In this document: positions 17,691 through 43,000 of the stretch, in pieces
How positions within the stretch are numbered: the first letter of the stretch is position 1
Layout: the number at the start of each line of letters is the position of its first letter
From: Blasia pusilla
Taxonomy: Eukaryota
Assembly (NCBI GenBank): GCA_050084515.1
Contig: CM114271.1
Span: 3,720,001-3,784,000 of the forward strand
DNA length: 64,000 nucleotides
Direction of reading: 5' to 3'
Translations under genes and position numbers: made by a program
The notes under the pieces: generated by a model
What the model was told of the DNA's origin: nothing
Database searches by the model: none
The model's input: only the letters and a program-made list of their open reading frames with translations

Positions 17691-17969
17691 TGTGACCTCA
17701 CTTGGAGAGGACGCAACCTCCGCCTTTGGTTGCTATGTAGCAACCCTAGCCACCTCCGCAAGAGCCTCTCCACTCTGACATCCTACACCATGCTCCACAT
17801 CCAAAAAATGAACATGTGCTACTCTGGCCGCCTTCGCACTCTCCGCTCGAATGACATCCCAGGACGTCCATGGGTGCCTATCTCTCCTCGTCTCGCCCCC
17901 ATCCAATGCCTGTACAGACGCTGTAGGCAATGGTCCAACTCGTGGACGTGACGGCATCGATGACACTCA

Positions 17970-20109: not shown

Positions 20110-21670
20110 AGCTATAGGCACCGCTGGTTTTCGAGGCACCATCGATGGTGTGTGTAGTGCCTCCGACAATGTGAATGACTGTGGAACCCTGGCCTCCCGC
20201 CCATCAGTCCCCTCTAGTGGGTCAATCTCAACTCCACCTCTCGATGGCTTGGTGCCTCTCGCAGCACCCTAAGTCACCACTGCAATTGCCTCAACGTGGA
20301 CTACACTACACATAAACACCATACTGGCGAGATCCTCACCCGGGTCAGGGTAAGAGGTAGAAGCTGGAGTCACACTAGCTGCTCGCAGCTCCGTGCCTTC
20401 CCTAAGCTGCATCATCGTCATGGCAACAATCCTTTGCTCCAACTGATTGATGTGTGAGAGAAGTGACGGCTCTGGTGCTCCTGCTCCATCTCCTCTGGCT
20501 GGTGGTGGTGCTCTACCACCACGTCCAAGAAGGACTCCCCGACCTCCTCGAGGACGACCGCCCCCAGGCCCTCGGCCTACCTCTGGACGTGCATCTCGGC
20601 GAAGGTCAAAACATCTATCCCTAGTGTGACTATATGTGTGGCAATAGTCACACTGGGGCTGTGGTGGGGCCATCCTCTATGGTTCTTGAGCAATCAGAGG
20701 CGCTTGTGGTCCTCTTCCATGTTGTGGGCAATCTCTCTGCCTATGGGCCCCTCCACACGTCCAACAAGACCACATCGGTCCCTGTTGGGCAACATATGTA
20801 GGTACGGGTCATTGCCTCATAGGCTCACGATGCCTGACCCGCTCTCTGGGCACACCGGCCCGCTCCCGTGGTACTAGTGCTGGCTGTGGCACCTGTGGGG
20901 TCATTGTCGCTCGTGGACCCGTCGACTCTCGAGAAAATCCAGCGGTCACTACCTGCTCCTCACTCATGTTGAGCTCAATACGCTCAAAAAACTCAAAGAC
21001 CACCTTCAATATGGGCTTCACAGTGTGAATTAGCACCGCATCTCGGACTCTCCTCCGTATTTCTTGGCCCAGAACCCCGTACCAATACTGGACTGACTAC
21101 ACCTCAGTCACTCCATACGTAGCGATGATCAGCCTCCTCATGCGTGTGAATGCCTCTCTCAGACTCTCATCCGATCGTCGCTGAAAATCCTGTAGACTCT
21201 TCAGCTTGTCGTGCGTACGCTCTAGTAGCTCTTCCCCAACTGGCGGAAGAACTCCACTGTGGGGCTAAAGCTCGGTGACCCTCTACCACAAGAGGTCTCT
21301 GCCACATCGCCTATCTCACTTCCCTCCTCTCCATCTAGTCTCCGGGATGATGGTGTGGGTCTATCTCCTCTCACAATCCCATCATATGCCTCGTGACCAC
21401 TAGTGGACACATACCATGAAGCCCAATACGTCCTCCAAGCATCGATCTCTACTGAATATAGTGATCAAAACTCCATGTAGTCATCCATCGTAGGACCCTC
21501 CAAGTGCTGGAACAACCCCTTCCATGCCATGAAAGGGTTGAACCGTGTCGGGTCCGTATCTCCTAGAAGTCGCACCACGTGTTGAACTCTTGGATAAAAT
21601 CATCTAAGTCGATGGTGCGCACTGCAACCGAGAAATGACACATGCCCCGATGGCCCATGTCGTCCATCTC
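20110..21670 (-). pseudogene. gag of family A with CCHC zinc knuckle
   Basis: CDYCHTYSHTRDRC (CX2CX4HX4C) at ~20610-20652 followed by an RGG-rich tract; the N-terminus is homologous to 63437-64000 and 29700-30595. Confidence 0.8.
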
Positions 21671-23145
21671 CTGCCAAGTGATACTGCCTCCGTCTGCGAT
21701 CTCGTCACCAGACCCAATGTCTAGTGATGACGATCCACCCACGGATGGATATCAAGGTAGATCCTAACTGGTAACCCCTCGGTATCTCACTCCGCTCCGT
21801 GTGACTCCACTACTACTGCTCGCACTACCCCGTTCTTCCGAACCTTGGAAGAACGCTATGATGACAACCCTGTCTCACCCGCTCAAGCACTCAGACTCAC
21901 CGAGAGTCTCCCACAATCCTCACTAGCTCACCTATGCTAATATCAATCTTGTGATGACATACCCGGCCTCACGCACACTCAACACTCGGGCTCACCATGA
22001 GCCTCCCAACTGACTCACCTAACCTAGCGATACTCTCTCGGGCCATACACGCGACCCCTACTCGGCAACTGCCGTATATCCACCAACATGCTACACATGA
22101 AAAGAATCTACACTCGTCACCATCATTGCACCCACCTAGCACCAGCTACTACTCGATATCCAACTCTCTCAATCACATATGACAAGTGCGGGAAAAGGGA
22201 CTCGAATGGGTAACCTGATCACGCCCTCCAACCTACGGTATTGTCAACATGCACTCCCCCATGTGACACGGCAACCTCATGACTGACAAACTCCCGTCGC
22301 AAATCCCATCCACGCTTGCGAATCACCAAATGCAGAAACGAGCTGCGACTGCACCACTCGCCTCAACCACGTCCAATTGCTCAACCTCGTAGCCTGAGTC
22401 AACCTGGTATGGCTCCACTCCTACCACGTATGCCCTTTCCGGCCCCATCAACATGACCCCGACCACATCCGGCCATCCACGTCCGTTGTCCAACTATGTA
22501 GGTCACTTACCACGTCGGTATCCTCACCGCCACCACGTTACCTAAATGGGGGGGGCCTTGGCTCACACCCCTATGGCTCCTTGGGCCCTAAATGCGGGGG
22601 GGGGGCCTTACAGGCCCACCTTATGGCGCTTCAATGGGATGGCGCGCAACCCTATGCGGGCCTCCCAACTGTGGGAAAGGGGGATAAATGCAGGGGGGGG
22701 GGGGCTTACGGCCTCCCCAAATTGCGGGAAAGGGGTGCGTCTCGCAGCCTCTCCGCCTCCGCGCTCGGCTGCCTCCGCCTCCGCCTCTGCACCCTAAACC
22801 TAGCCGCGCCTAGCCCTAGCCATCCTTGCAACCCTAGCCTTGGCGGCTATAAACTCTCAACGTTTCCTTTCTACACTCCCGCCGTGCACCGTTCTCTCGA
22901 CGCTCCAACACTCTGCGTTGCACTCGAACGCTCGTGCATAACCCCCACTCTGTTTTTGTCCCTCGTTAATTCGCACCAACAAAATCTGAGAAAAAACGGA
23001 CAGCGCTTCCGCCCATGACCTTCCGAACAGAAAAATGACCAACATCCGCAATACATGCGTCTCCAAGGCTCTTGACCAAGGCAACTCGCTTGCCTACTTG
23101 CAAAAAACGAATTCCTACCAGCCCCCTAACATCTTTCTCATTTAA

Positions 23146-23618
23146 AAATAAAGAGTAGTAAAAATGGCACACCCGGCCTAAAACTCCTCAATCTACATTG
23201 GCATATTGAGCCTCGTCCACCCTGTGTTATCAAGGAATCCGGATGCTAGCACCCTAATCCTATCTCACACACATACAAGAGAGGTGCTCCAACGGCCCAA
23301 CATGAGAAAGATGGTTTAGGAAAGCCATCTTCCTCTCTTATATAGGGTTAGGAAGAGCCAAAAGGCTCTTCCCCCAAAAATAACCATCCCCTTGGTAACC
23401 TGCACGCACAGGTTACTAGGGGCGGGTGACATGGTCAACAAGTCACGCGGCTGTGAAATACCTCAACATGAAAGTTGTCAGAAACGAAGTTCCTGACACA
23501 ATGGACCTATCCTCAATCTCATCCGACACCGTGGGACAAAGTTGCACTCAAGATAGTTCGTTGGTTCCTACACCCTATCCACGATAGATCTCGGCCTATC
23601 GACTACTCAGATGTGTCA
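23146..23618 (-). repeat. Family A 5' terminal repeat (~470 bp) with TATA box
   Basis: Reverse complement of 15441-15915 and 61608-62088; CTATATAAG on the minus strand at ~23337-23345. Confidence 0.9.
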
Positions 23619-23800
23619 ATACTCCCCATGAGATAACTCCATAAGTCATGTCTTCCAAAATTCCTAACTCCTATTGTGAATCAAGGCTCGTTCCATGTCG
23701 GAATACCTGTAGGGTCGACGGAAGATCGGCGTATCACTAGCCAAATCAATCCGTATCTCGGGACCCTTCAAAGTACCCAGGTCTCTCATAATGAAGGAAA
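23619..23800 (-). pseudogene. Continuation of the older copy's RT (right part of the target)
   Basis: Homologous to 17418-17600; joins 15012 seamlessly once the insertion is removed. Confidence 0.85.
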
Positions 23801-23802
23801 AA

Positions 23803-24285
23803 AATCCAACATTGTTGGGAGACACTCGTGCAAAGTTGATGACGAGTTTGTATTAGGCAGGTCGTGGTTGGGACCTACCGAATTGTTGGATGCGGCGAGA
23901 GTTGGATCGCGCGCACATCATCCATAATTATGGTGGACAAAAATTCTACAATCGAAGGTATTGAAGCGAGCTTATGATGGAGTTCAAAAAGCACCACACT
24001 TGACAATGGATATTATCTTGGGTTTCGGGCGTCCGTCTCAAGTGGTGACACAGAATGATAGGCCATCGTTGGTGGTAGCCAATAGGATGGGGGAGTTGAG
24101 GGCAACCTTACCTATGTTGGTGAGCTTCCCAAAATCCTATGTCTTTCGTCAAGGAGGGCCATGCATGATTTCGGATGAGGAGACCCAAGCACCGAAGGAG
24201 CCCATTAGTGATGAGTGTGAGCGCTCCATGGGGTTTGTTGCGAGCACTACGGCGGTGCTAGACATGATAGAGGTATCACGCCCCA
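23803..24285 (+). pseudogene. Second DNMT fragment (from just after motif VI to the start of motif X), inverted within the older copy
   Basis: LLDAARVGSRAHHP*LWWTK, RAYDGVQKAP, LPMLVSFPKS and DECERSMGFV align with 18050-18525. Confidence 0.88.
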
Positions 24286-24289
24286 AAAA

Positions 24290-24890
24290 GGTTCAACTAC
24301 GTAGGGGCTTGTATCTCTTGGAAGTCGCACCATGTGTTAAACTCATGGATGAAAATTTCAAGATCTATGGTGCCTATTGCACCCAAGAAACAACGCATGC
24401 CCTAGTGGCCCATGTTATCTATCTCCCTCCACGTGACACTCTCTCCGTATGCAATCTTGTTACTAGATCCGTTGTATAGTTATGACAATCCAACCATTAA
24501 TGGGAGTTGAGGTAGCTCCTCACTTGAAATCCCTTGGTATCTCAAACCACTACCACTGATCAAACTACCCCGTTCTTCCCAACCTTAAAATAATATCGTG
24601 ATGAAAAACATGCCTCACACACTCAAACGCATAGATTCACTAAGAGTCTCCCACACTCCTCACTAGCTCATTTATGCTAATGCTAATCCTGTGACAACCC
24701 ACTTGGCCTCATGTGCACTCAACATTTAGGCTCACCATGCGCCTCCTAAACTAACTCACCTAAGCTACTTACACTCTCTCTCGGGTCACACACGCGACCC
24801 CTACTTAGGAAAAATGTCATATATCCACAATACGCTACCCATATAAGGAGTCTACACTCGTCACCATCACTACATCCATCTAGCTTAAGC
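24290..24890 (-). mobile_element. Leader and gag N-terminus of the older family-A-like copy
   Basis: Colinear with 21555-22140 (GAAGTCGCACCA..., CACTCGTCACCATC). Confidence 0.8.
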
Positions 24891-24923
24891 TCTACCAATG
24901 TCGTATAGTAAAATCATCCACAA

Positions 24924-26600
24924 TGTAAACTCCTCTATCATTAAGTGTTAGAGAGAGTTTTATTATATAAAGGAAATTAACCTAGGAAAATGAAATTCTT
25001 ATGTTTAAACCTCTTTAAGATGGTTCATTTGTGCGGACCCAACTTGAGAAAAAGAGGTTATAAATAAAAGATGAGATTATAAAGTAAAATAGTGGGGTTG
25101 GTGCTTTAATGAAAGAAAAACAAAAGTAGTCTTGGTTGGTGGTTAGGGTAGTTGGGATAGTTTTGAAGATATGAAGTGAGTAAAGGAGGATATTTTGGAA
25201 GAGATAAGAGGTAATCTACTTATGTCAAAATATGATTGTCTAAGCCTTGAGAGAAAGCCATGTGGCACAAGATAAGATTAGTCATATTTTGTACTCTTGT
25301 GGATCCCTTGTGAGTATATAAAGAGGAGGGACCTTCAAAGGTTCATCATCTTCTACTCCATTTCTTGAGTTCTCGTGTCACTCTTGAATGGATGGCATTG
25401 GGATTTCTTGCTCTTCCAATGAAAGTGGATTATTCTTCTTGGGAGAGTAACTTGACCATGGTCTATTCTTCGAAAGATTTATAGAGTGTGGTATGTGTGG
25501 GGATGAAAGACTTGTCATACTAGAGATAATGGATGGTTTTGGCTTGTTATTTTTCCAATGAGAGTGGATTACCCCTCTTGGGAGAGCAACTCCGCCAAAA
25601 ACCATTATTGAGGAGAGTAGAGGATATTCGTCAACTATGGATAGAGGTGGACCACGAGTTGTACCTGATTTTCCTTTCCTTAACCTGTACCATGTGAAGA
25701 TTCTCTTCGCAGATAGACATTGGTTTACTCGCTATCTAGTTTATCACTTTGGGGAGGCATTCATGAACCAGGTCATGCAATCTTCAACTCGAGTGATTCT
25801 TCCTATTATCACGTATGGGAGGACATGGGATTGTACGTTGTATGTTCTTATATAGCGATCCATGGATGTTAATACGCTTGCTCAAATAGGATTTAATACT
25901 AGTTATGCTATTTTTCTTGTTTAGAAGCGCAAAGTAGTTTACAGAGACTTTATAGTTATGAATTTTGGTTTTCAAGGTTATAAAGAAATGATCGCCTCAG
26001 CTCTACTATTTGCGATTCCTATCGTGAGAGAAGAAAGGGTTTATATAATAATTTTGTATTGAAAAAATGGAATTTCTTATAGAGTTCACCTTGCATCAAC
26101 CACGTCTGCCACAACTAGAAGGTCCGCCCTTACTCAAAGAAAAGCTCTGGACATGACACATGGTGCTTCCATTGAAAGCTCTTTGAGGCATTAGATTGTG
26201 TTTGTAAGTTGGAGTCTAATCAAGATGACTACTTTTGGTACTATTTCATCAATGGGAACTAAGGGAGTGGAGGATCTTCTCCAAACTTTGACAATATTAT
26301 TGAGCCAGCAAAACGGAGTTCACATAGGAGAGCAAAGATCAACAAGGGCTCTCTAAGAGATTGTAAAGAAGTTGGGGAGATTTGATGGGAGGAACATCAC
26401 CAAGCATGTTCGAGAGTACGTTTGTGAGATGGAGGTAAACCGTGTACCCGAAGGTGATGTGGTGTCAAGTTTTGAGTTAGTTGTAATACCAAAAATTCGT
26501 AGTCAAGCAAAAAAGTTGAGAGCAGAAAATCCAACCTCGTATGAGGAGTATGAGCAATTGCTGAAAGGAGAATTCTTCGATGATGATGTGGATGGAGTGC
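24924..26600 (+). mobile_element. Unrelated decayed gypsy-like element: probable LTR, PBS and gag start
   Basis: ...GACATGACACA is followed by TGGTGCTTCCATTGA at 26161 (PBS-like), then gag-like RFDGRNITKHVREYVCEME. The left boundary is a guess. Confidence 0.5.
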
Positions 26601-26794
26601 TCCTACTTGTCCATGCTCTTGATGGGGAAGGGAATAGAGGTGGGGAAGGAAGAAATGGGAATGAAACATAGAGGCAAGTGGGGGAATTAGAAAGTAGGGG
26701 GAGGTGGGGCTCATATGGACAAGTCCTTCCATAGAATGGACCTAAGTCCACGGACACGGACTTTCTCCACATGGAGCCTTGATTTTGAGTGTTT

Positions 26795-26930
26795 GTGATT
26801 TATTGGAGATATTTTGGTACTCGATCATCTCAATGTTTAGATCCCATGAGTGAATATGGTATCTTGTATGTTTGTGGGTGTATTTGATAACAATGATGTA
26901 TGTTGTGTAGCAATGTGTATGCACATGAAA
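26795..26930 (+). repeat. Isolated, decayed family B 3'-terminal segment
   Basis: TTATTGGAGATATTTTGGTACT...TGTATGTTGTGTAGCAATGTGTATGCACATGA is the reverse complement of 27576-27707. Confidence 0.75.
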
Positions 26931-27575
26931 ATTACAATATGTCACTTTCTTGACTCTTTGATGTGCTCCCCATCTCCCTTGTCACCAACCATAATCACAA
27001 GTACTAAACAAGGATCCCACTCCTCCAGGATGCCTTATGATGAATGGTACATGATTTTCCTTTTGTGAGTCAAAGAATTCCAATTATGAGTCTTTTGTGA
27101 CTCAAGTGCAAGATCCCATAGTCGTAAAGTATGATTCTATGTAGCTCTTGCCTACTTTCAATTTGTGAGTAAAACTTGCAATCATGTTTGTAAGTCCATT
27201 GTGAGCTTAGTGCAATTCTCTACAATTGCACTTGTAAAATGGATGTCACGACTCGTAAAAAAATTTGACTCCCAAATTTGAGTCGAGTCGCAATTTACTC
27301 ACAATAGAATCACAAAAAGTGGACTTAGGACTGAAATTATGCCCATGCGAGTACCACTCTCGTTCAACCCATTGGTCGAGTTCTTTCCAAGGTAGAGGAG
27401 GAACTATAAGGGAGCTAGTAAGGACCAACAAGTTAAAGTTGATTTATGAGATTCAAAGGATAGTGGGGGAGCATTTTTAACATGCGTGCATGCATTTTTA
27501 ATGATTGATCTCAATGACTCAAGGTGTGACATAAGCAAAAAGAGTTCCATTTGGTATGTAATGCTACATCGCAAG

Positions 27576-28208
27576 TGTCGTGCGCATACACATTGCTACA
27601 CAACATACATCGCTGTCACCGAACACACACACAAATACGCATGATCCCTATGCTAACTCATGGCATCCAAAAAACGAGACAAGAAGTACCAAAATATCTC
27701 CAATAAAGTAAGATCCAATCTCTCTCTCCACCATCTCACGCCATAGCTCTCAAAGGTGTGCACTCTCTCTCATGTCAAACCAAACCCACTCTCCTAATGA
27801 GAGGCTTGGGTTACACTCACAAGGCAAGGTACCATAGCTCCGCCGCCTCATGCCAAGAGGTTCAACAAAGAGAGAATGAGCTCTCAAGCTCTCTCTCCTT
27901 GAGGTATACCCCTCCCCTCTCCCAAGCTCTCTCCATGGTAACCTATTCTCCCAAGTCACCTCCTTGGCTCTTGACCTGATGTAGGAGGTCAAGGGCCACT
28001 TACCAAAAATAGTAAATAGATCATATACTCAAAATGGTACGTACCTAAAATAATAAGTTGGCTCCAAATGAGCCGAAACAAAGGGGAAACCTGCTATCTC
28101 AGGTTTCCAAGGGCCTCAGCAGGTCACCCTCGACCTACTGGGCGTGTCCTCCACTACTCATGAAGGCGCTCTATTAGATCCCACCGATCTATCCTAAAAG
28201 ACGTGACA
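27576..28208 (-). mobile_element. Family B solo terminal repeat
   Basis: Minus-strand ends TGTCACGTC...GCGCACGACA; perfect 4-bp TSD CAAG (27572-27575 and 28209-28212); matches 28728-29365. Confidence 0.92.
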
Positions 28209-29365
28209 CAAGTTGCAAAAGAGAATATGTGATAAGACTCTCTTATATGTTGGTTTATTCTCAAGTTAGAGTTTTTGTTGGCTCCATTACTTAGAGGTAG
28301 TGGAGGGATTGTGCACGAGGCAACCATGGTGAGGATTGCTGAGTTGGAGCAACACCGTGAGACACTCATGATCCAACAAACATCCAAATTATGTAAGTGA
28401 AGAACATTGAATTTTGTATGTGCCTATGCACATGACATAAAAAATCTAGGAGGCATGGGATTTCTTTGTAAGATCACACAAATGGATGTAGATGTAGTGA
28501 TGAATCTAAGCACGTTAAGGGCATCCAAGTCACAAGGATGTAAAGTACAGTTTGATCCATTGAGAGGAGAAAGTGGCAAGCATGTCACACTTCCTTAATC
28601 TTTTCATTGTGAAAGGCTCTTTGAACATTGTCAATGGACATTGTCAATGGACCCTTAATGACCTCTTCATAGTGTTGTTATCTTTACATGCAAATATATT
28701 GAGAGGATCGAGTGAGATGATTACGTTTGTCGTGCGCTTACACATCGCTACACAACATATATCACTATCATCGAATATACCCACAAACACGCACGATTCC
28801 ATGCTAACTCATGGCATCCAAACAACGAGACGAGAAGTACCAAAATATCTCCAAGAAATCAAGTAGATCTCACATCAGATCTCTCACACCAAACTCTCAA
28901 TGGTGTGCATTCTCTTTCATGTCAAACCAAACCCATTCTCCTAATGAGAGGCTTGGGTTACACACACAAGGCAACCAAGACCATAGCTCTGCCGCCTCAT
29001 GCCAAGAGGTTCAACAAAGAGAGAATGATCTCTCAAGCTCTCTCTCTTGGAGGTATACCCCCTTCCCTCTCCCAAGCTCTCTCCTCGGTAACCTATGCTC
29101 GCAAGTCACTTCCTTGGCTCTTGATTTGCTGTAGCAGATCAAGGGCCACTTCCTAAAGTGGAAAGTAAACTATATTCCAAATATAAACTTACCCTAAACA
29201 GTAAGTTTCTCTATATGGTTCCAAATGAACCGAAACAAAAGGGAAACCTGCTCTCTCAAGATACCCGTGGCCTCAGCAGATCATCCTCAACATCGTGAGG
29301 CTGTCCTCTAGTATCTCTAAAGGCGATCTACTAGATCTCGCTGATCTATCCTAAAAATCGTGACA

Positions 29366-29592
29366 AGATCCAACATTCGAATATCCTCCTCTGGGATACA
29401 CCACACAATCGAGGTGGTGTCCAAAGGGATCATAGTAGCACTCGTGGCTACCTCGGGTTCCTTTGACCAGTCACGCTTGGGTGCAAATTCCTGACTCCAC
29501 GCCGTCTGTACGTGCTCATCAGATAAACGTCGGAGCTCCTCGCTCGAGCCCAACAGCGGCACCTCTCCTCCATAGAATGATGCTACTACCAT
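29366..29592 (-). pseudogene. Family B linker and the start of DNMT motif I
   Basis: PLLGSSEELRRLSDEHVQTAWSQEF..IPLDTTSIVWCIPEEDIRMLDL aligns with family A PLWGTTRELQRSVDDLVRQAWSHAF..TPLDTTPVVWQCPEEGVRVLDLF. Confidence 0.8.
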
Positions 29593-29699
29593 AACACTCC
29601 TCTCCCTAGAAGTGTCAAGCGCGGGGGTGTCTCCATGGACATGCCCCTAAATCAAATTAGAAGGCCACTAGATGGCGCTCATGAATGCTGCTAAAGTCA

Positions 29700-30595
29700 C
29701 AATCTCTCTCGTGGTGCCATAGACTTATCTCGGAATCCACGTTGCTGCACTGGTGGTGCAGGCAATCGTGACTGCTCTTGCCTAGAACTTATGGTGGCTA
29801 CGCTCTCCTCCGCCATGTCGTGCTCAATGTTTTTGGCGGTCCTAAAAACATCTCTCAACGTGGGTGAGATGTTCATAAGAAGCACCCCCTCCCGCACCCG
29901 TGTCCGCAGGGTTCGATTCAGCATCACGTACCATAACTGGATATCCTATGACTGTGTCACCCTTGAATGATGTTCATCAACCGGTGCAAGCAAGTGTAGG
30001 CCTCACGCAAACTCTCACCCGGGCGCCTCTCGAAGTCGTGGATGCTCCGCAACTTCTCAGTCCGTACCCCCTTGTAGCTCGTCCTCAACTCCGCAAAGAA
30101 CTCAACCACGGGGTTGAACCTGGGACGAACCCGAATGGACGGTAAAACTACTCCAGTGCAAGCTACCCCTCCTAAAACATCACTGGTGGAAGAGGAAGTA
30201 GTCTCTCTTGAATCCTCCTCCTCATCTGGGAACGGCTCCGTCCATGACACATAATGTGGGTCATAGTAGAGTCGCCATGCCTCAATCTCCTTTGCATATC
30301 TGTGGGAGAACTCATGGTAATCGTCCATGGGCGCTCCCTCCAAATACTAGAACGTACCGTTCCATGGTGTAAACAAGTTGAACTCTCTAGAGTTCCTAGC
30401 CCGCTGTGAGTCACACCAACTCCTAAACTCCACAATGAAGTCGTGTAACTCTATAGTGCCTTTAGCACCCGAAAACCTTCGCGGTCCTCTACCTCGGTCA
30501 TCCATTTCATACGCCCAACTGGTAGGACCACTCACGGTGTGCGGTGATGCACCAACAAACTCATATACACTCTCCCTCTCGTCTGAAGATGACAC
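29700..30595 (-). pseudogene. gag of family B
   Basis: MDDRGRGPRRFSGAKGTIELHDFIVEFRSWCD, EGAPMDDYHEF and FERRPGESLREAY are homologous to family A gag; interrupted by stops. Confidence 0.82.
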
Positions 30596-33500
30596 AGAAG
30601 GAGATCGAGGTGGTCTCTCACGTGGAGACCCTCGAAACCTCGTGCCACTCCGCGTGAACCCTCTATAGCTACTCTCATGTCCACCACCTCGCCTCTCAAA
30701 GTCCCGAAAGGACGCCGTGATGACCCTCGTGCCTCTCTCACACGATCACTCTCAATCCCGCAAGTAATCACTCAAACTAAATATACGACACTCAATCTAC
30801 ACTCTCTCATTGAGACGTGTGTTGTGCGGCAACAAGCGGCATGGTGCGGTAATCGGCTACTGTCCTATCATCTCATCGACAGGACATATCCTCAACTGTG
30901 GACATCCCACACATGTCTATGTCTCCTAAACCCATACATCAACGATGCTCTCAACATCTGCACGAAACCCAATATCCCCAAATAACTACCCAATATCCGG
31001 AAATCCCTAATACGTGTAGGGCAAAAAATCAGAATGGGTAACCTGACAACAAATGTCGATGTCGCTCCTCGAAAATTGCAAACTCGATCCCAACTTGGTG
31101 TGAAGACAAACTCCTCCAAACAACAAGTACCACTCCCCTGACGATGCTCAAATCTCCTCGATGTGCGGTGGAGGTCCAGCGTACGGTGAGGCATTGGCAG
31201 CATGAAACGGCTACAAACGGCAAGGCACTAGGAAATGGGATACGGCACTTGGCGGCATACCCTCCTTAATCAACCAAACATAATCTACTCCAATGATGGT
31301 GTGGCTCCCTGATTGAGACGGTGCGGTGCGGCCACAATCGGCGGCACGTTGCGACTACGGTACTCAATCGTCGTCAAACGACACACAATTATGACCCCAT
31401 CAATCCAAAAAGATAACATGTCATCAATGTCAAAGCTGTGGCCGGCAACTGTGAGGCGGCGGCGGCCGAACTGTTGTAGATGACGTGTACGGACCGTTGA
31501 TAGTAGAACGATCGTCAATTGACTAACAGCGCTGGTAGACGGTGTCGGACGGGAATGGACGGCCGTCCGTCGGACAGAAGCAGCTGGTCAAAGACAAAAC
31601 TGCGCAGTCGATTCAGATGCTGGAGTGTCTGCCGGCCGGAGAGCGTGGCAACTTCAGGCAACGTCGCGGTCAGTGCCGGGTAGACGGACCGCGGCTAGGG
31701 TTGCGGCTAAGGCGCCCACGGCTGAACGGATGGTGGCTAGGCCAAAACGGCATCATTTAACCGGGCCAGCTCCGGAAACTACGGCTACGGGTCTTGCAGT
31801 CTTCGGCTACGGCTACGGATACGGGGGCAAAAGGGGGGGAAAACGCACTACAGGGGCGCAGCAAGGCAGTAGAGCTGCGTGGCTAAGCGGCAAGTTGAGG
31901 GCCGAGCTAGCTAGTTGGGTCGCCGCAAGGCGGCAAGGATTTATAGCGGCTGCTGTCAGGAGCGGGTACCATAGCTAAACGCGACCCTTTCTAAAAGGGG
32001 ATTTTGTTTTTTAAGGCAGGACCCGGATGGCTAAGGGACGCGGCGGAGGCGGACCAGCAAGAACCATGGCTGGTCGGAAGCGACGACCTCGCGGTGGCTC
32101 CGCGACAACAGTGGGCTGGCAACGTATGCGCTCCAACCTCGGTTAAGGCAGCGTGAACTGCGGCTCGCCAAGACTACGTTGTTGACACTTAACTTGATCA
32201 CCCCCTACAAGCTGGCGTAGTATTTTGTCTCTAACTAGGAATTCCCCCCACAAATAGGGTCAACTCCCTAACATGACTTCCACTTGCCATTCACCCTCAA
32301 CTTAAAACTTATTCTTTGTCCTATCCAATACAATAAAAGGCTTTTTTATTTCTGTATCCCTCACGAAAGGAGTTACCAAAGGTTTTGAAATTACTTCTCC
32401 CACCCGGTGGCACACTGGGTTGGACACTGGGTATGGCAGCTTGCTAAAACTGTCATAACTTCATGCTCCAATGATGAAATTGTGCACCGTTTTTTCAGGA
32501 GCGTACACAGATTTTTGATCTACGACCTAACCAAGTTTGTTTCTTCATTCAACCTTCCAATAAAAACTGACGGGGACTTTTGTGCAACTCCTTATCTCTT
32601 TATCCTACGCAAAATTTGGCAGCTCTTCCGTGCTGATTTCTCCCAAAAAAATCGGAAACCTGTGAAAACAAAAATCAGAGAGCTACATGGAGCAACCCGC
32701 CCCCATACTCAATCTCTAATGAAAATTGGGCAACGCTTCCGCGTGCCACTCTTCCACACGAAAAATCAACAAAGGAATTAGCTCCCGTGAGCACTCTCAT
32801 GAGCCACTGAACGGGAAACACAGTCCCCAACCTGCACCAACAGCAAGTGACCAGCGAGCTCCTCCATTCAGGCTCTCTCAATCTCTCTTTGTAAATCAAG
32901 TAGATCTCTTACATCATCTCACACAAGGTTCTCCATGGTGTGCACTCTCTCTTATGTCAAACCAAACCCACTCTCCTAATGATAGGCTTGGGTTACACAC
33001 ACAAGGCAAGCAAGACCATAGCTCCGCCGCCTCATGCCAAGAGGTTCAACAAAGAGAGAATGAGCTCTCAATCTCTCTCTCTTGGAGGTATAACCCCTTC
33101 CCTCTCCCAAACCCTCTCCACGATAACCTATGCTCGTAGGTCACCTCCTTGGCTCTTGACCTGCTGTAGCGGTTCAAGGGACACTTCCCAAAGTGTAAAG
33201 TCAACTATATTCCAAATGGAAACTTACCTAAAATAGTAAGTATCTCTATATGACTCAAAATCAGCCAAAACAAAGGGGAAACCTACTCTCTCAGGTGATC
33301 CGTAGCCTCAACAAGTCATCCTCGAACTCATGAGGCTATCCTCCAGTATCTCTGAAGGCGCTCTACTAGATCTCGCCGATCTATTCTAAAAGACGTGACA
33401 CGTCTGTGAGCATCAAGGAGAATGGTATGGGAGGGCTGGACCTCTTATGAGAGGCCTTTCCTTAATGACCATGCATATCTTATTTCATTAGAGGATAAGA

Positions 33501-36500
33501 GGTAGTTGAGGGAGAGCACATAATATACCCCACACCAATAGTTACCTATTCTTAGAGTGATAACCTTTGCACATAGGTTACTATGGAGTTGGTCATGGGG
33601 GATAGACCCTTCAAGAGGCTCGATTGGAGTTGATATTTAGATATGAAACCCTAAGAATAGAATCCATGGTGCATTGCAACAAGGTAATGTTGGCATATTG
33701 AGCTTGGAGTCTCTTTAGTGGATTATGATTTATGTTGAGCTCACGTATTGATATGTATTTGTTGTGTTTTTTTTTTCACTCGGATCTCTTTATTGAATGA
33801 CATATATATGTAGTACATTTGAGCCACATAGGGTATAAATGTAGTGCTAGAACATTGGACGGTATTAGCCTTTAAGAGAATTTTTTATTTCTAAATATTT
33901 GAATTCAACATCAAAGATTACATAGCATATTTTCATTGGGTGTGTCTTATTGGACACATATAAATCCTCTAGGATTCATATGATAGATGGATCTTAAACA
34001 TGTGTTGTTGACAAGTAATATTTGTTGGTTAGTGATGTATTCTTGCACTACACCTACTACAAATATTAAAAACTTCTAACAAATATCTTCTTGTCAATGC
34101 TATTTAACCTGGATTTTGTGAAGTCTCTTTCCAAATGTGAGGATATTTTTTCTCAATTTGCATTGATTTGTTTTAGTAGTGGTCAAATTTTGCTTCCAAA
34201 ATAAACACAAGTTTGCTCCAATCTTGCCACTTACTCCATTGCCTCTTATATTAGGCAAGTGGTCTACTCCATGAAGAGGTTATCTCATATTTGCACATAA
34301 CCTAGCTCTTATACCATATTAGAAAAAAGAAGAAGGAATCACAATCATAAATACAAGGTGAGGAATGAACAAAAGACACAATTAGGATATGAAGGGAGGG
34401 AGTGCATATACATCTTCACTCCTATTGGTTGTGAGCTTTGGTGCATCCCTAAGAGATTACAAATGTGGATTGACACTACACACGTGGTTCATTCCTATCC
34501 TCCTGATTTTACTTGTGATGAAATGCATCCTAATATATATTATTATTGGAGAGTCTCTCTTCACTTTGAAATCTCCTTTTGACATATCATTTTTAATCAA
34601 TAAAATTGCTCGCTCAAAATTATACATCATTGCATCATACCTACACCAGCTTGTTACTCTAAGAGCACAATAGGAAATAGGAGACTTATATGTTCACTCA
34701 TGAAATATCGAGCACACGTCACAAATGGGAGGCTTCATGTCCACTATCAACACCTTGCGATAAACATTGATGCAATCTATTAAATTTTGAAGAGTGGATA
34801 GCATGGCAGTTACAAACTGCATTTCGTAGGTGCTTAACTTACACCTCACTTACAAGCTTTGTAATGACAACGGCTCACTCCAAATTTATGCCTAATCTAA
34901 GACTCTAGTCGGCATGAGACTTATTCTAAGGCCATCCACAAGTTGTGGGAGGGCATTTGATGGCTAAAGCTCACACCTGAAAATGTTTATATGCTATGGG
35001 AGGGATGCTCTTAACCATAGCGGTTACTTCTGGTGTTAAATGAAAGGCTGCTAAGTATCCGTTTCGTTCAGTTAAAAGAATTCTTGAGTTAAGCGCACAC
35101 ATCGGCGATCGGCCCTTAAGTCACCGTCCCTGGGAAGTCATCTGTTTAGTGACGGAGGTACCCGACGACTCACTCCGATTTCATTCCGATGGACGCGCTG
35201 CTCTGGCTATCTTTCCAAGTGCACTAGTATTCCAAGTGAAGTTAGTTAGACTTGTTCCGGTTGCCTCTAAGGTGACAACTTCGGCTTAGGGCACACCGTA
35301 ATCAGGAGCGTCTAATTAATAATTTTCAGTCGGTGGTGGGGCCGGACGAGTCGGCAGTGCGTTTGCGTACGTGCGTGCATGCATGCGATGGAATCGGAAG
35401 AGCGCGTGCTGCAGGGCAGGGAAGATCGGAGGACTCGGTTAGTGACGGTCCGCGATATGTCGCGTACAGATGCTGAAACGCCTTACGCCTACGGAATATG
35501 GAACAGGCGCCGACGGTCGCCCCAGGTGTGAGTCTTGAGAGAGTGGAAAAAGATCCCCCCGGGAGCAGCTCCGTCCGTTCAATCACCGCGTGACGTGGGA
35601 AGGAGTCCGAGCGCAGTCCGTGCGGATAGGGTGACTCAACCCTCTGTCTGGCACGCAGGAGCGTCTGGAACCGCAGTTAGTTCGGAAGTCGCCGGCAAGA
35701 TCCCCGACCACCTTCAAAACACAGCAGACGCCAACAGTTCACGAAACGCGGAAGAAGGTGACGCACGCACGCACGAGAGAGAGAGAGAGAGAGACGAGCA
35801 CAAGGTTTGCACTATCCACCGTGATCGGAGCTCCCTGACACGCAAGAGCTTACGACCTTGTGCTTGTGCGCTATGGTGGTGAGTCTCCATCGTCTCATGA
35901 GTAGACAAACCGCAGGTGAAAACGGATGGTTGATGCAAAACTCCCAGGTGAGAAGCTGATCTGTCAGATTGTGGATCCCATCGTTGAGTGCTCTGGTCTC
36001 CTGAAGATGGATGGCCCAGGCATGAAAGAAGCACAACTTCATTATTTATATATGAACAAGAGTCTTTTATTTTTTTAAAACAATTCAATGAATGAATGAC
36101 GAATCTGCGCCATTCAGCATTAAGAAGCTCGCAGTGAGAGAGTGCAGCCGAGTTCAGAATCACGCGGCTGAGGAAAAGAAGTAGGTCCATTTGGGTGTAG
36201 CAGGGCCTTTTCCTTCTTCATTTTATGAGGCCCTGGACCTTCGCGGCTGATCACACTACACTACCTACCTACCAGTCCCAATCTTGGAAAAATGTTGTGA
36301 ACATAATATAGATGGCAAGAAAGAAAACGCGGAAGATGCTCACCTGAAGCATAAGCACTCTGAGTTACGGGCCTGCGCGCGGATCGGAGCAGGCAGGACG
36401 ACGCAAGAGAGGGTGAGCAACAGAACTTCTGGACAAACATGGCGCTGGAGGATAGATAGCAGCAACGCCATCGTCACCACGACCGCCACCATCATCAACC

Positions 36501-37470: not shown

Positions 37471-40029
37471 TCAGGTCGCGATTGGTGAAGGAGAGGGTGG
37501 CATAGGTAGACCTCCGATTGGTAAACTACGTCTCACGGTCTCGTCGTTACTGAGAGGCTCCGCGACGTCGACGTGGGTCTTCAAGCTTTCGAAGGCGTTG
37601 ACCAGACTGCGCACTCTTCCCCCGACGATGTTTTTCGGAAGACTGCTCACTACCAACATATGATCTGTCATGTACTCTTCCGACAGTCGCCTCTCTGCAG
37701 TATCGCCCTTCTTCAACTCCACAGTCTCATTCGTGTTCACCGTCTCCAGCCATGTGGTCTGCCCTCGCTTTCCGAACTTCAGAGAGATCTCTTTCCCCAC
37801 TTCGTTCTCCTTCTCCTGCGCGCTCGCAGGTCTGTCGAGCTTCACGGGAGGACCTGCGATCGGGGGGTCCCTGGAGTCCGACTGGTGCGGGTTCTTGGAT
37901 GCGAGAGTCAAGGGGAAGCCAGGATCCACGTGCTTTTCTGCAGAGCTTTCTGGAATGGGCACGGTCATGTGCTGAGCAAGAGCAGAGACCGAGTTGCTGG
38001 GAGAGACGGGCGTCGTTGAGCTCCTGCCCTTGCCTCTGAGGTCGTTTTGGGTCGCGGGCGCTTTGCTGCCAGTTTTTCGAGCTATGGGACTGTCTCTCAG
38101 CTCAACGATGAATTTCTTCGCAGTCTTCACGGCTCCTTGTTCAGGCTTTGAGTAGCTGTATGGTGCAGGTGCGGCCGTGACTGTGGAGGAGTTCCACGAA
38201 GGCCTCGCCAAGAGCTTGGAGTCGGGCCTGGATCCGGCGGCCGCATTCGGGCTGTCCTTCAATTTGGACAAGGATTTCTTCGCTAGACTCGAAGTCACTG
38301 ATGGAGGAGTCGCGGAGGTGACTGAAATGTTTGGGGTGGGACTCCGTGATGACTTGGAGCTGGCGGATCCCTTGGTCGATTGCGAAACACGAACAGACGA
38401 GAATGTGGAGGAAAGTCTCGTGAGCTTGGACGCGACCGCTTCGGTGCTCTTGCGGCGTCCCTCTCTGTGCACTTCCTTGTCGATGCTGTTGACGACGGAA
38501 GATGTTGATTCAAAAGGAGACACCGAAGAACTGGTGACACAAGTTGATTCAGGTGAATGCTGCTGTTGTTCCGGTTGTTGCCACATTTCTTTGGAGGTGG
38601 CGGTGCGATTGGAACCAACCGAAACAGCAGGTGAATCTTCTACCCCATTTCCTTCGGCAGCGACCCGGGATGAGTTTCCCCTCTCCTCAGTCAAACATGA
38701 AACAGTGGGACTCCCATTCTCAAAACTGCTGCTGGAGGTAATGCAGTGCACATTGGGATCGTCTTCGGAGGTGATTGAGCTTCTCCTCCGGTCGACTGTG
38801 GTTACCTGGGAGGAGCAGGAACTTCTCCTCGGCTTCCGTTGCCGATCTTCCAAGATCGAGGATTCCGTAGTGCTCCGACGAGAGCATTGCAAGCGATCAC
38901 CCTTGCGGCCAGATTTGGCAGCTCCTGAAGGACTGACGAATTTGTTCTGCTCTGGTCTCTCTCCCCCTTTCTTCTCGATCGCAACAGATCCGCTCCAAGC
39001 GTCCTGCTTCTTATCAATTGCGACAGATCCATTCCAAGATCTGTGCTTACTTCCACTTGAGGTGCTCTTCCTCCGTTGGGGTGCCGCTCCCGCCGAACTG
39101 CTGAGAGACTGGAGTACATGACTCCTATCGTGATCACAAGAGTTGCTCTTTACTTTCTCACGCACTCCTCCATAAGCGTGTTTTCTCGCGACAAGGTACT
39201 GCTTCGGAGGGAGGGGAGCCTTCATCGCGTAATCGGGATTGTTTGCAGCGCACCGTGCATGATTGCAAGCATGATGGTGTCCATATAGACGTTCCACGAT
39301 TTCCATTCTCGAACATGGGGATCTCCATTTCCTCGGACGATTACTTTCAGAACTCTGGTCGCCATCAGAATTACGACCATCGCTGAGTGACGATGTTCCA
39401 CACTTCTTCCCGTCCGAACAGGAGCCACCTTCCACCATTCGACTAACCGTCCTTCCGTTCCGAGATTCACCATTTACTGATTTTTCAGGTATCCTGCCAT
39501 CCACATGAAACCCGTTTTCGGTCCTTTCCTTGCTCATCCGAAGACTGGTCTGGGACAGCTTCTCAGATATCTTGCCTACAAAGCCTGTGCTTCCTCTGGG
39601 CGTCGCTTCCATTCGCGGTCCTTTGCGAATCGACTTCTCCAATGTCTTGTCGTCCAGATGAAACCAGGGATCAGTCATTCCTTCGGCCATCTTTCCATAA
39701 CGGGGTCCGCTCTGGATCGACATCTCGCATTTCTTGAGATCAGAAAAGCGTTCACCCTCATCCCTCTTCTCGACGGCCGATCGATCGTGAGGTTCACTAC
39801 CGCCAGACTTTTCGGGGATTCTGATATCCTCGAAGCTCATATCGTCTGCTTTATCCTCGATGATTAATCCGTCACGAAGTCCACAACCGAAAGACTGGCG
39901 GGAAGCTTTACCAGCGATTGCGGTCTTGTCGCTGAGAAGCTCGTTTCGAGGTCCGCCATTGACCGACTTCTCGGACCTTTTGCACTCGTCCAAACAGGCG
40001 CCAGCCTCCGCCATCACTCTGATCGTCAT
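37471..40029 (-). CDS. 852-aa Ser-rich, largely disordered protein with a C-terminal plant calmodulin-binding-like domain
   Basis: Long uninterrupted ORF. The C-terminal LKF..VELKK..SEEYMTDHML..RVRSLVNAFESL resembles the plant CaM-binding domain (KV+xLVxAFE). A likely 5'UTR intron acceptor (TTTACAG) lies near 40178. Confidence 0.8.
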   Translation of the reverse strand: MTIRVMAEAGACLDECKRSEKSVNGGPRNELLSDKTAIAGKASRQSFGCGLRDGLIIEDKADDMSFEDIRIPEKSGGSEPHDRSAVEKRDEGERFSDLKKCEMSIQSGPRYGKMAEGMTDPWFHLDDKTLEKSIRKGPRMEATPRGSTGFVGKISEKLSQTSLRMSKERTENGFHVDGRIPEKSVNGESRNGRTVSRMVEGGSCSDGKKCGTSSLSDGRNSDGDQSSESNRPRKWRSPCSRMEIVERLYGHHHACNHARCAANNPDYAMKAPLPPKQYLVARKHAYGGVREKVKSNSCDHDRSHVLQSLSSSAGAAPQRRKSTSSGSKHRSWNGSVAIDKKQDAWSGSVAIEKKGGERPEQNKFVSPSGAAKSGRKGDRLQCSRRSTTESSILEDRQRKPRRSSCSSQVTTVDRRRSSITSEDDPNVHCITSSSSFENGSPTVSCLTEERGNSSRVAAEGNGVEDSPAVSVGSNRTATSKEMWQQPEQQQHSPESTCVTSSSVSPFESTSSVVNSIDKEVHREGRRKSTEAVASKLTRLSSTFSSVRVSQSTKGSASSKSSRSPTPNISVTSATPPSVTSSLAKKSLSKLKDSPNAAAGSRPDSKLLARPSWNSSTVTAAPAPYSYSKPEQGAVKTAKKFIVELRDSPIARKTGSKAPATQNDLRGKGRSSTTPVSPSNSVSALAQHMTVPIPESSAEKHVDPGFPLTLASKNPHQSDSRDPPIAGPPVKLDRPASAQEKENEVGKEISLKFGKRGQTTWLETVNTNETVELKKGDTAERRLSEEYMTDHMLVVSSLPKNIVGGRVRSLVNAFESLKTHVDVAEPLSNDETVRRSLPIGGLPMPPSPSPIAT

Positions 40030-43000
40030 GTCAGCTAAGCAGCCGCACGTCGAATCAAAGCTTCTGCTTCATCGGTGGACCTGTCCTTCTTGGGGCTGTA
40101 GGTAGCTCTTGATCCGATCGAGCACTCCTAACTTGAGTCACCTACACACTCGATTCCGCTCCTGCATTCAATCCAACCTGTAAAAATCAACCAGTGCTAG
40201 ATCACTTCTCCGGCCATAAACAACTACTTTCTGTCGTTCACGTGCACTCAGGTCAATTGCGATCGATCCACTTCCTTACACATTTAGCATCACATCGAAG
40301 ATCACCTTGAGCCCAGTAAGCTTCCGATTCGCTGCCGGTCAACACACTTCTTCTAAGAAGACACCGAGTGACTGAATCTCGGACCGAACGCTCACCGTAT
40401 CAAGCTGGCGTTCGTGAGCGGCGACTTGTGACAGTGAGAGACAGGAATGCACGACTTCGCACATCTGAACTTCAAACGACAGCGAACGAGTAATTGGACT
40501 AATCCCAACGGGGAACCAGAAAAAATCTTCCAGACGCCAAATCTATCGGCAGAAGAATCAGCACGCGAATTGCGCAAATTAAATGATGGACACCTGTTCT
40601 TGCGAACAAGCTTCTGATGATCACAACCACCGGTCACGAAGTCCGCTCTTTGAGTGCAGGACTGCGGAAATGAGGTCCAGCGACAGGCATTGCACATTCC
40701 ACCAATTAGACGATCCATAGCCCGACCTACGTGTGTGCTTAGGACCGTGGAGCGGGGCGCATTGACTTCATTCCCAACTCGCGGACTAAAAACATGAGCG
40801 CGCGGAACGACACGAATAAGCGATAAAAGAATTGAATCCCCATCAACGACTCACCTGCTCGAGAATTGCAGACGCTGCTCGAATCGACCCTCGCCAATTG
40901 AAGTGCACTCTCAGGTCCAAGCGAGTCGAGCAACACCCTCTCACTCCCTTATCCGCCTCTTCTGCCGCGACCGGCCCAAGCTTGAACTGACAGCGACTTA
41001 CTACTCCACCAAATGTCAGATCACTGCGAGAGCAAGCTCCCTCCCTCGCTCATGTGACGGATATCAACTGGAAAGATCAGTCAGACGCTGCTGCGTCCCA
41101 CAGGGAACTGCTGGAACGCGACGCAACAAAACGTGTTATCTCTCAAGGCAAATCTACAAATTCGTGCTTCCGAGAAACAAACCAGTACTCCAGTCTCGCA
41201 AAGAAAATCAACGCACTGCACTCTTCCAAGAACGACTACCTAGATTGACCGTAAACCCGACAAGAAGTCGGGTCCTGACGAGCGATTGAATGATAATGTA
41301 CAGACGACCGCACAAGGTGTTCCACCAGGTGCACGCCAAGAAGAGAAGACAAAACTCAACAAAATCCCCGACACTCACCCCTTCGCTACCTCCCTCCCGC
41401 TACCTCTACTCTCGCGTGTCCGTGTCCCTCTCTGTCTGTCACACTGTCTACTATTTATTCCCTCCATGTCTCCACCCGCAACCACACACCGTCGCATTCA
41501 AGTCGACGATTCTCGCTCCGCTCAAACCTATTTATTTACTTCGATTTTCGGATCTGCGCTTATGCTCACCTGCTCCGGTGACTGAGCCCAAACGCTGCGT
41601 TGCTCGAGCACCTCGAATTCACGCCAAAGACGCCATTTTCATGTCCAGGAGACGCAGGATGCCTGCGTTGGCTCCAGCCTCCAGGAAAGCACGGGCTGGC
41701 TGGCTGGCCCCGCGTAGGCTCCTGCCCCCAGACGCCCGGCGGCAGCACGGGCCGGCCCGGACCTTCAGCCGCCCCGGCGCGCGCGCCTGCGTGCGTGCGT
41801 GCGTGCGTGCGATCGAGCGTGCGTACGTACGTACCTACGCTCCTTCTGAACTTCTGTTTTTTTTCGCTACTCAGGACTCAGGAGTACTCAGAACTACTCA
41901 CTCCGTCAACCAAACTACATGTTTCTTCCGTCTCCGTTTCTTTTTCCTGTCCGATCTTCTCGGGCTAATTACACTCCAACTCTCCCTCCGAGACTCCAAC
42001 TTCGATCCACCGCTAAAAAAAGCGGCGGCTACAACCTCGCACCTCGAAGTACGTACTTTCGATGTACGACTTACTTTGGAGCAAATATTGCCCTCGATTC
42101 GCCTTTGTTTGAATATGAAGCAGATTTGGAAGCAAGATATTCGAACCCGTTATCCGATGGAAATATATTCAACCGGTATGTTCACTCAAAGTCAAGTCTT
42201 TAAAGGAGGGGGGCGCTGAGCCGCTGATATTGTCTTAAGGCGGGGGCCGATGAGCCGCTGATATTCAAAGATAGGAGTGTTCTAGGCCAAAGTTTTAAAA
42301 TTCTAGTTTAGCTAAACCCTCCTCTCCCTTCCTCATTTATTTGTCTTCTCTTAATTTACTTTCAAAACCAAAAGAATCCTTAGCACGATTTTTCCTAATT
42401 CCATTCTCTTTAATTATATAGGTTTGCCTACTTTCATGAATCATATAAACTAGCGAAAGTTAAACTTTTTACGTAAGTCGGGGTTTGCGAGAAGCATTTT
42501 TCATTTTGTGCCTCCATATATTATGGGGCATGGACGTTCTCGCATCCCCATCAATATATACCATAGATGGAGGTGTGAGATGGTGGGATGGTCTCACAAG
42601 GCCCTACAATAAATCTTATTTTATAGCCTTTTTAAAGTCATGTGTATGGACTAGAGAGTTTTTTTATTTGTTCGGACTAGTATATAGTCACGTATAGTAG
42701 TGTGATTATTAAATAGTATACAAAATTTAATTATCATGCATGGCTTTGGCACTCCAAAATGACCCTCCTCAACCAAGACCCATGCTTTTTTTTTATGAAA
42801 CTACTTATCTCCCTAGTTGGATAAACACATGTACTATATTTTCTCAAAGTCAGCAATTTTTTTAAGAGGATAAAAATGGATAAATTAGTTTCCAAAAAAA
42901 TTAGAAAGTTTCAAGTAAGGATCGGAAATTCGTGATTTGAATGACCGACCATACTTAGGGCGAGATCCCAAGGATGGCTGCTCAAGTAAGGCCGACCTCG

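Follow-up and report, generated by a model that had tools for sequence, protein, structure and literature searches.

A 64,000-nucleotide (nt) stretch of the Blasia pusilla genome (GenBank assembly GCA_050084515.1, contig CM114271.1, positions 3,720,001 to 3,784,000; hereafter the window, numbered from its first letter) carries retrotransposons of two families, here called family A and family B, whose terminal repeats differ in extent. Within the repeats, A denotes the part common to the 5' and 3' ends and B a terminal segment that belongs to the 3' end only, copies being numbered from the 5' end (A1, A2; B1, B2). The window copies are old, damaged elements of the Gypsy-DNMT3 type, and both have lost an internal copy of segment B (B1). 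With a probability of roughly 55%, we read them as members of a split-repeat Gypsy-DNMT3 lineage that would prime its own reverse transcription, carry the repeat B-nn-A (nn, two spacer letters) in its cDNA, and insert as a circular permutation of that cDNA. Copying and insertion would then be unlike the textbook retrovirus scheme, since the terminal repeat is split and its missing piece is stored internally.

The asymmetry was examined in both families. In family B, a repeat scan of positions 27500-34500 and a BLAST search against the window agreed on a 3' repeat of 639 nt (29366-28728, minus strand), with which the 5' repeat (33400-32893) aligns only at positions 2-511 (86.5% identity). The last 128 nt of the 3' repeat (28855-28728) are segment B and have no counterpart in the 5' repeat; a solo copy (28208-27576) aligns with positions 2-639 (82.1% identity). 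In family A, an alignment of four ends showed that the 5' ends at 15442 (+), 23618 (-) and 61608 (+) pass ...TACTACTCTTT into one common leader, and that the copy at 15440-15013 (-) enters a GT-rich B of 121 nt, ending GCGCACGACA, instead of the leader. Segment B measures 121-128 nt in the window, occurs only in 3' repeats and solo copies, and is absent after A at five of five 5' ends; between the two families, homology of segment B covers its last ~25-65 nt. The window elements end in TG..CA, and perfect 4-bp target-site duplications (TSDs) flank three of the four copies tested, the fourth (the family B element) agreeing in three of four bases. A sequence-only reading of the window had described this asymmetry in both families, together with solo A-B copies flanked by TSDs, TG..CA ends with 4-bp TSDs, and the lack of a TGG-type tRNA primer-binding site (PBS). 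All of this was borne out: CTTG stands on both sides of the solo copy, TG..CA ends with 4-bp TSDs recur in related elements, and the first 23-26 nt beyond the 5' repeat contain no TGG. The family A element sits inside a sister copy and, because an uninterrupted paralogous site exists (17418-17421), the unit from A start to B end must have transposed as a single piece.

The family A reverse transcriptase (RT) open reading frame (ORF), used as a query, matched 638 proteins. The best named matches are from liverworts (Calypogeia fissa, 76-78% identity, and Marchantia), followed by Sphagnum, Closterium and Chara, so that the matches span charophyte (Closterium, Chara) and bryophyte proteins. The precomputed domains of these relatives comprise RT, RNase H, Integrase_H2C2, rve and PHD, and in several of them also PF00145. 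Three relatives were rescanned, with the domain orders CCHC-DNMT-RT-RH-IN (P0034), DNMT-RT-RH-IN (P0015) and RT-RH-IN-PHD (P0002), where RH is RNase H and IN integrase; the order in the lineage is gag-DNMT3-RT-RNaseH-integrase-PHD. Among solved structures, the P0015 RT is nearest to that of Ty3, its integrase to PFV integrase, and its DNMT to DNMT3A/3B. Two of the related loci described below, L006 and L045, encode DNMT (PF00145), RT, RNase H and Integrase_H2C2, with PHD in L045. A pol in gypsy order with a DDE integrase was thus seen in the relatives and in these two loci, the window itself retaining RT and RNase H only. No tyrosine recombinase (Phage_integrase) was detected in 46 scanned ORFs from the window, L006 and L045, an absence that is not absolute, as the ORFs are degenerate. 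Ten further ORFs gave no domain matches in the Pfam scan. Judged by their sequences, the RT, RNase H and DNMT genes place the window elements in the streptophyte Gypsy-DNMT3 lineage, of Ty3/gypsy type. The kind is described for Klebsormidium in de Mendoza et al. 2018 (PMC5890265), and the name 'Gypsy-DNMT3' appears in a passage of a 2026 preprint. The segment at 18405-18710 of family A is a liverwort-type example of a DNMT-carrying gypsy element.

The intact layout was recognised in related loci. Eighty metagenome loci were gathered with an alignment of 15 relatives, and the 38 with long flanks were compared with themselves. Direct repeats flank pol in 14 of these 38, all with the same end asymmetry. 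In 11 of the 14 (L035 and L050 being one sequence) a second repeat pair, B1/B2, exists besides A1/A2, and a full B1 (56-181 nt aligned) stands directly upstream of the 3' A; the remaining three are cut by a contig end or have lost B2. Identities of B1/B2 (85-95%) and A1/A2 (81-91%) vary in parallel (92/90 in L006, 86/81 in L010, 93/91 in L045), and both pairs therefore go back to one and the same insertion. When A and B queries were mapped on all 80 loci, a B1-A2 junction was found in 26, followed by B2 in 21 of them; six loci have A...B only and ten pol...B only. Of 20 covered 5' ends none has B after A1, nor does any have the arrangement A-B-nn-A. TSDs of the related elements agree in four of four bases in 6 of 15 (L016, L023, L045, L001, L038, L057) and in three of four in 5 of 15, the other 4 being ambiguous. 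The intact layout is thus A1 - putative self-primer site - leader/genes - G-run - B1 - 2 nt - A2 - B2. The 5' repeat is accordingly without B by design, and B is kept inside the element as B1.

Both strands of the window elements themselves were searched for an internal B copy and none was found: local alignments scored 20-21, and shuffled sequences gave means of 18.6-22.5 with maxima of 25-30. In family B, the sequence preceding A2 holds no significant remnant of B1 or of a polypurine tract (PPT), with scores of 18-25 compared with shuffle maxima of 33-39. The search for an internal B that the sequence-only reading had proposed as a check for a split-repeat layout was well chosen: B1 directly precedes the 3' A in intact relatives and in Blasia pusilla reads (see below), and is missing from the window copies. 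Family B lost it together with its whole pol region, and family A through the rearrangement that placed an inverted 5' end (15442-16209) where its integrase, PPT and B1 would be expected.

Further features of the related repeats were recorded. Among L006-type elements the joint between A2 and B2 varies by 2 nt: it reads AAT-ATACATG in L006, L010, L031 and L047 and is 2 nt shorter in L016, L023 and L027, and in L016 and L023 the A1 end and the B1 start are the same as in the longer-joint elements. This variation fits a joint that would be made anew, the alternative being inherited differences. The idea that homology directs a jump of the template between the A end and the B start was rejected, as the B1/B2 repeat overlaps the A end by an inconsistent 0-10 nt. 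Richness of segment B in G and T (G+T 0.66-0.68; TGT 3-4 times denser than in A) is a property of the window families and of L045, not of L006. In related loci (L052, 5586-6524; L051, 4214-4744), solo A-B copies and inverted A pairs adjoin element ends, and nesting among members of the lineage is thus frequent.

Short reads extend the layout to Blasia pusilla. Four read runs bearing the species label of the window were mapped on positions 28600-32950, a stretch that holds each repeat part once. At least 373 DNA reads join the A start (29363-29366) to the B end (28727-28730) with 1-4 letters between them, and in 2392 DNA reads with a loose end at the B end the consensus continues as a 2-nt spacer followed by the A start (in reverse complement), with one family-B-like and one family-A-like version. 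Beyond the B start, 2270 DNA reads and 100 and 159 RNA reads lead into one common sequence (agreement 0.74-0.95), which is the G-run region that precedes B1 in L018, L045 and L053. Internal B1 also occurs in Blasia pusilla elements according to these short reads, for which sister families are a possible source. The RNA reads are sense-stranded. Depth at the joint between A and B (position 28855) was 1609 in DNA, and the two RNA runs gave 16 and 20. The ratio of this joint to that of G-run and B was 0.71 in DNA (1609:2270) and 0.16 (16:100) and 0.13 (20:159) in RNA, which is about 5-fold poorer in the A/B junction. Most transcripts thus hold B1 then A2, not A2 then B2. No pile-ups of RNA starts or ends in the repeats were reported, the steps in depth lying off the predicted start and following subfamily divergence, and no join of the B end to the leader was among the best-supported joints listed, a list that leaves 97 further joints aside. 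Differences between reads and window (one DNA run, same stretch) are mostly C>T (335 places) and G>A (326 places), other types accounting for 30-141; the excess fits deamination of methylated cytosines in repeat copies.

In the related elements, the B1 start is immediately preceded by a run of at least five G. This holds for 23 of 26 junction loci and for 13 of 14 pol...B loci, and nothing comparable abuts A2. This G-run PPT adjoins B1 and lies 115-181 nt upstream of the 3' A. All 26 B1-A2 junctions have a 2-nt spacer, ...(A/G)(C/T)A - 2 nt - T(G/A)T(C/T)ATG, which is purine-pyrimidine in 23 of them (GC 7, AC 7, AT 6, GT 3); a GC spacer makes the junction palindromic, GACAGCTGTC. The idea that the spacer derives from the element's own TSD was unsupported on inspection.

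Judged by TGG and not by a tRNA library, no tRNA PBS follows A1, the first TGG lying 24-27 nt into the leader. A scan for self-complementary primer sites, also proposed by the sequence-only reading, did yield a candidate, with the leader start complementary to the predicted 5' end of the RNA. For this, a 40-nt stretch across the A1 end was aligned against A, alongside 300 control windows. An exact complement of 10-16 nt between leader start and A was present at 9 of 23 5' ends, with none of the 300 controls as good; at the family B 5' end in the window the complement is 11 nt, and three of 300 controls were as good. In nine elements it starts 30-34 nt after a TATA (e.g. 61887 to 61918 in the window). 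Four families have four different paired sequences with complementarity kept, and L053 and L018 differ by two compensatory changes. In L045 the best match (11 nt) lies at another offset than in L053, because its homologous site is mutated. When the predicted R plus primer site (61918-62112) was folded, the minimum-energy structure paired the 5' end with the site (z -3.7); for family B the centroid structure did so (z -2.9). Taken together, complementarity and covariation suggest self-priming similar to that of Tf1. An inverted repeat in A surrounds the predicted transcription start (61895-61931; 33049-33090, minus strand; offsets ~150-185 in L053 and L045), the downstream arm of which is the primer-site complement and the upstream arm of which resembles the primer site; it may form a competing stem that regulates self-priming.

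A replication scheme can be assembled from these elements. Transcription would start about 31 nt after the TATA in A1 and mostly end near the A2 end, giving a genomic RNA of the form R-leader...PPT-B1-nn-U3-R. Minus-strand synthesis would be self-primed as in Tf1, with the RNA 5' end paired to the site abutting A1, as complementarity and covariation indicate, and minus-strand DNA would start at the A1 end. From its position, the G-run abutting B1 would be the start of plus-strand synthesis and, because this PPT abuts B1, the reverse transcriptase would duplicate B-nn-A. The ends of the linear cDNA would be B start and A end, neither of which resembles the end of an integrase substrate. Ends of integrase type, ...CA and TG..., abut inside B-nn-A as CA-RY-TG, and genomic copies end exactly there, flanked by 4-bp TSDs. 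Circle formation or an end-to-end template switch would connect the A end of the cDNA with the B start, and integrase would then open one CA-nn-TG junction, leaving a copy that runs from the A start to the B end. With the integrase ends abutted inside the duplicated repeat, what is inserted would be the cDNA in circularly permuted form. As a speculation, polyadenylation would be favoured at the 3' end, where A is followed by GT-rich B, and avoided at the 5' copy. A broader idea, which we hold tentatively and at less than even odds, is that this is an integrase lineage whose cDNA ends are not its integration ends, with an obligatory end-joining or circle step after which one junction is opened, a logic like that of bacterial insertion sequence (IS) circles and perhaps evolved to keep B at the 3' end only, after the poly(A) site.

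This scheme was drawn from genomic sequence and from DNA and RNA reads, and several observations weigh against it. Neither B1 nor the G-run is present in any window copy, and the layout comes from relatives and from short reads that possibly stem from sister families. At 14 of 23 5' ends the complementarity is no better than in controls, the copies being degenerate, and the L045 match does not share the offset of that in L053. Neither the predicted transcription start nor the poly(A) site is matched by RNA depth steps or pile-ups. Circle formation followed by junction opening predicts two permutations, and only A..B-A-B is seen (A-B-nn-A, 0 of 20); our guesses are that the first junction would become double-stranded earlier, a kinetic effect, or that the end-to-end template switch would be directed. 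Finally, the A/B junction is present in a minority of RNA reads, so read-through RNA is possible as the true template.

Such a read-through template is the starting point of a route like that of DIRS and PAT elements, in which RNA from inside A1 to inside or past B2 would give an unpermuted linear cDNA, its ends completed on the internal B1-nn-A2, as proposed for split-repeat tyrosine-recombinase elements, and used directly by the integrase. This route would account for the single permutation; PAT, Ngaro and Viper have their repeats laid out in the same way (passages of PMC4157794; legend in PMC5890265), and A/B junction reads do occur in RNA (depth 16 and 20). We nevertheless consider it rather unlikely, since no tyrosine recombinase was found and the ends and TSDs are of integrase type, a PBS abutting A1 and a PPT abutting B1 predict a B-nn-A repeat, and the A/B junction is about 5-fold depleted in RNA compared with DNA. 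A primer site beyond B2 is moreover impossible, because the flanks differ between copies. The A..B-A-B form might also be secondary, the primary insertion being A-internal-B (cut at two junctions or from a unit circle) with A-B added later. A-internal-B copies with TSDs are indeed common (six loci with both ends, perfect TSDs in L001, L038 and L057), but they are equally expected from B1 x B2 recombination and, having no downstream R, could not be recopied, and yet A..B-A-B dominates (21 junction loci with B2); the 2-nt spacing, invariant in 26 of 26 junctions, also misfits a secondary independent event, and we judge this course improbable.

The sequence-only reading had proposed non-canonical priming, perhaps at the RNA 3' end. 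The first part gains from the missing tRNA site and the leader-start complementarity, and the second is unsupported. A minus strand primed at the RNA 3' end after B2, with one late jump restoring the 5' U3, would yield A...A-B directly and without a tRNA primer site, but it would leave unexplained the internal B1, the G-run that abuts it, the 2-nt junction and the conserved, co-varying complementarity between leader start and RNA 5' end, and most RNA lacks the A/B junction; we regard it as very improbable. Least credible of all is the alternative named in the same reading, that recombination or deletion produced the window copies from canonical elements with A-B in both long terminal repeats (LTRs) and a normal PBS. 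Both window elements are certainly damaged, family B being without pol and family A containing an inverted fragment. Against this, B is seen at 0 of 20 related 5' ends and at 0 of 5 in the window, one A-to-leader junction is common to three family A copies whose flanks differ, the asymmetry is common to families whose A parts no longer align, and no join of B end to leader is among the best-supported joints listed; the asymmetry is heritable and part of the design, and did not arise by deletion.

Coordinates of the features in the window are collected in the table.

Table. Repeat parts, signals and coding remnants of the elements in the window
Feature	Position	Strand	Details
Family A element, Gypsy-DNMT3 type	15013-23618	-	TSD GTAT/GTAT at 23619-23622 and 15009-15012
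Family A 5' repeat A1	23140-23618	-	TATA 23337-23344; predicted R start 23300-23313; PBS-like 23130-23141
Family A C5 cytosine DNA methyltransferase fragment, in pol upstream of RT	18405-18710	-	PF00145, E 7e-10
Family A reverse transcriptase, RVT_1	16911-17732	-	
Family A RNase H	16353-16910	-	
Inverted A plus leader (family A 5' end)	15442-16209	+	Abuts ~offset 168 of the 3' A
Family A 3' repeat	15013-15440	-	Partial A2 15134-15440 (A offsets about 170-478), then B2 15013-15133
Third family A 5' end	61608-62106	+	A 61608-62092; element extends beyond window end
Signals of third family A 5' end		+	TATA 61887-61894; predicted R start 61918-61931; 14-nt PBS-like 62093-62106
Family B element	33400-28728	-	TSD GACG/AACG, 3/4 bases
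Family B 5' repeat A1, A only without B	32893-33400	-	Starts TGTCACG
Family B A1 stretch complementary to leader start (predicted RNA 5' end, R start)	33049-33059	-	11-nt exact complement
Same motif in family B A2	29014-29024	-	
Same motif in family B solo copy	27865-27875	-	
Family B putative self-primer binding site (PBS-like), directly after A1	32882-32892	-	Complementarity and centroid fold
Family B leader and internal region	29367-32881	-	Without pol, G-run PPT and internal B1
Family B degenerate gag-like ORFs	about 29957-30745	-	Within internal region; no Pfam match
Low-copy insert in family B internal region	31374-32541		Read depth near 0
Family B 3' repeat, part A2	28856-29366	-	
Family B terminal segment B2, GT-rich	28728-28855	-	Ends GCGCACGACA; G+T 0.66
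Solo A-B copy, family B	27576-28208	-	TSD CTTG/CTTG at 28209-28212 and 27572-27575
Mini-element, family B type	46686-47413	-	TSD ATGG/ATGG, perfect
Isolated B-type segment	26796-26931	+	Upstream: gag-like sequence and ~30 nt A-end-like sequence

Several rearranged copies accompany these elements. The inverted pair in family A, 15442-16209 (+) and 15134-15440 (-), is arranged head-to-middle, includes 289 nt of leader and has arms 93% identical; it may have arisen by nested insertion with a later deletion, or through aberrant replication. The outer sister copy of family A (23619-24896 plus 14617-15012), compared with 17026-18521 plus 21556-22140, is without about 3 kb (the equivalents of 18522-21555) and has one segment inverted (23812-24277 versus 18055-18521). 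In family B, TGT is found 6.2 times per 100 nt in B2 versus 2.2 in A. The segment at 31374-32541 is GC-rich, with read depth dropping from hundreds to about 0-2 per strand, and is probably captured or inserted sequence. The 728-bp mini-element (47413-46686) comprises A, a PBS-like start, (CT)n and (TA)n microsatellites and the last ~75 nt of B. Possible interpretations are a TRIM-like derivative and an A-internal-B copy that has collapsed. At 26200-26931 (+), gag-like sequence leads through ~30 nt of A-end-like sequence into B without a G-run, another rearranged 3' end. Host-like features lie at 8658-10896 (-), 37471-40068 (-) and 55246-55767 and include SPRY-domain ORFs and a tandem array with units of about 49 bp; an 865-amino-acid host-like ORF has a weak match, below the Pfam cut-off, to a plant calmodulin-binding domain.

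Textbook LTR replication demands two identical LTRs. Compared with canonical Ty3/gypsy elements, the present ones agree in gypsy pol, TG..CA ends and short TSDs, and differ in having neither identical LTRs nor a tRNA PBS nor a PPT at the 3' LTR. In Tf1 self-priming, the PBS pairs with the 5' end of the RNA of the element itself. As in Tf1/sushi and Tcn1, no tRNA primer site is seen here, and a site abutting A1 is complementary to the nucleotides with which the transcript is predicted to begin. Those elements, however, have two identical U3-R-U5 LTRs and a chromodomain integrase, whereas here the 5' end is without U5, the integrase has a PHD finger, and the PPT abuts B1 and not the TG end of the 3' repeat. 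Abutted ends are cut by a DDE recombinase or integrase in IS3/IS30/IS911 circles and at retroviral 2-LTR circle junctions. The arrangement here may be seen as analogous, in that ..CA and TG.. ends abut with a short spacer, often as a palindrome. The IS or 2-LTR junction is transient and exists in the circle only, whereas here it is permanent in genomic copies and RNA and its cutting by integrase would be hypothetical. Plant Tcn1 and TAR lineages are predicted to be self-primed in a passage of PMC6317226.

The layout A1 ... B1 A2 B2, in which the genes precede the internal pair, is shared with PAT, Toc/TOC1, Kangaroo, Ngaro and Viper, and is reportedly the repeat order that Day et al. 1988 gave for TOC1. 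Those are tyrosine-recombinase elements, unlike the present ones with their rve DDE integrase, TG..CA ends and 4-bp TSDs; split-repeat tyrosine-recombinase elements are not known to make an integrase-type TSD. Split direct repeats are presented as a hallmark of tyrosine-recombinase retrotransposons in a passage of PMC4157794, and TOC1 is called a non-autonomous DIRS element in one of PMC9940879.

The nearest precedent is KnitGypsy-Dnmt3, for which the legend of Fig. 4c in PMC5890265 gives DIRS-like repeats and a gypsy domain composition. To the extent of that legend, the present elements are alike in combining a gypsy pol with a DNMT3-like domain and in the A-coding-B-A-B layout, which is seen in 21 related loci and in Blasia pusilla reads, the window elements being without B1. 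The host differs, being a bryophyte (nearest named matches in liverworts) and not a charophyte alga. Any claim that such a layout had gone unrecognised is weakened by this legend on a Klebsormidium element. The legend is also the sole statement on gypsy split repeats found in the literature text searched, where nothing on mechanism was found. No description of primer site, PPT, junction or TSD anatomy and no replication model for KnitGypsy-Dnmt3 was found in that text, and the supplements of PMC5890265, which were outside the search, may say more. The window thus holds new bryophyte members of a known, barely described kind, and what is new is the anatomy and the model.

These elements break the identical-LTR rule and yet keep a DDE integrase, TG..CA ends and 4-bp TSDs, and their anatomy makes it a testable question where the cDNA ends lie and what the integrase cuts. 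LTR finders built on identical LTRs, on a tRNA PBS and on a PPT by the 3' LTR will mis-bound or miss the lineage in bryophytes and charophytes, and solo A-B and A-internal-B copies will be misread in annotation.

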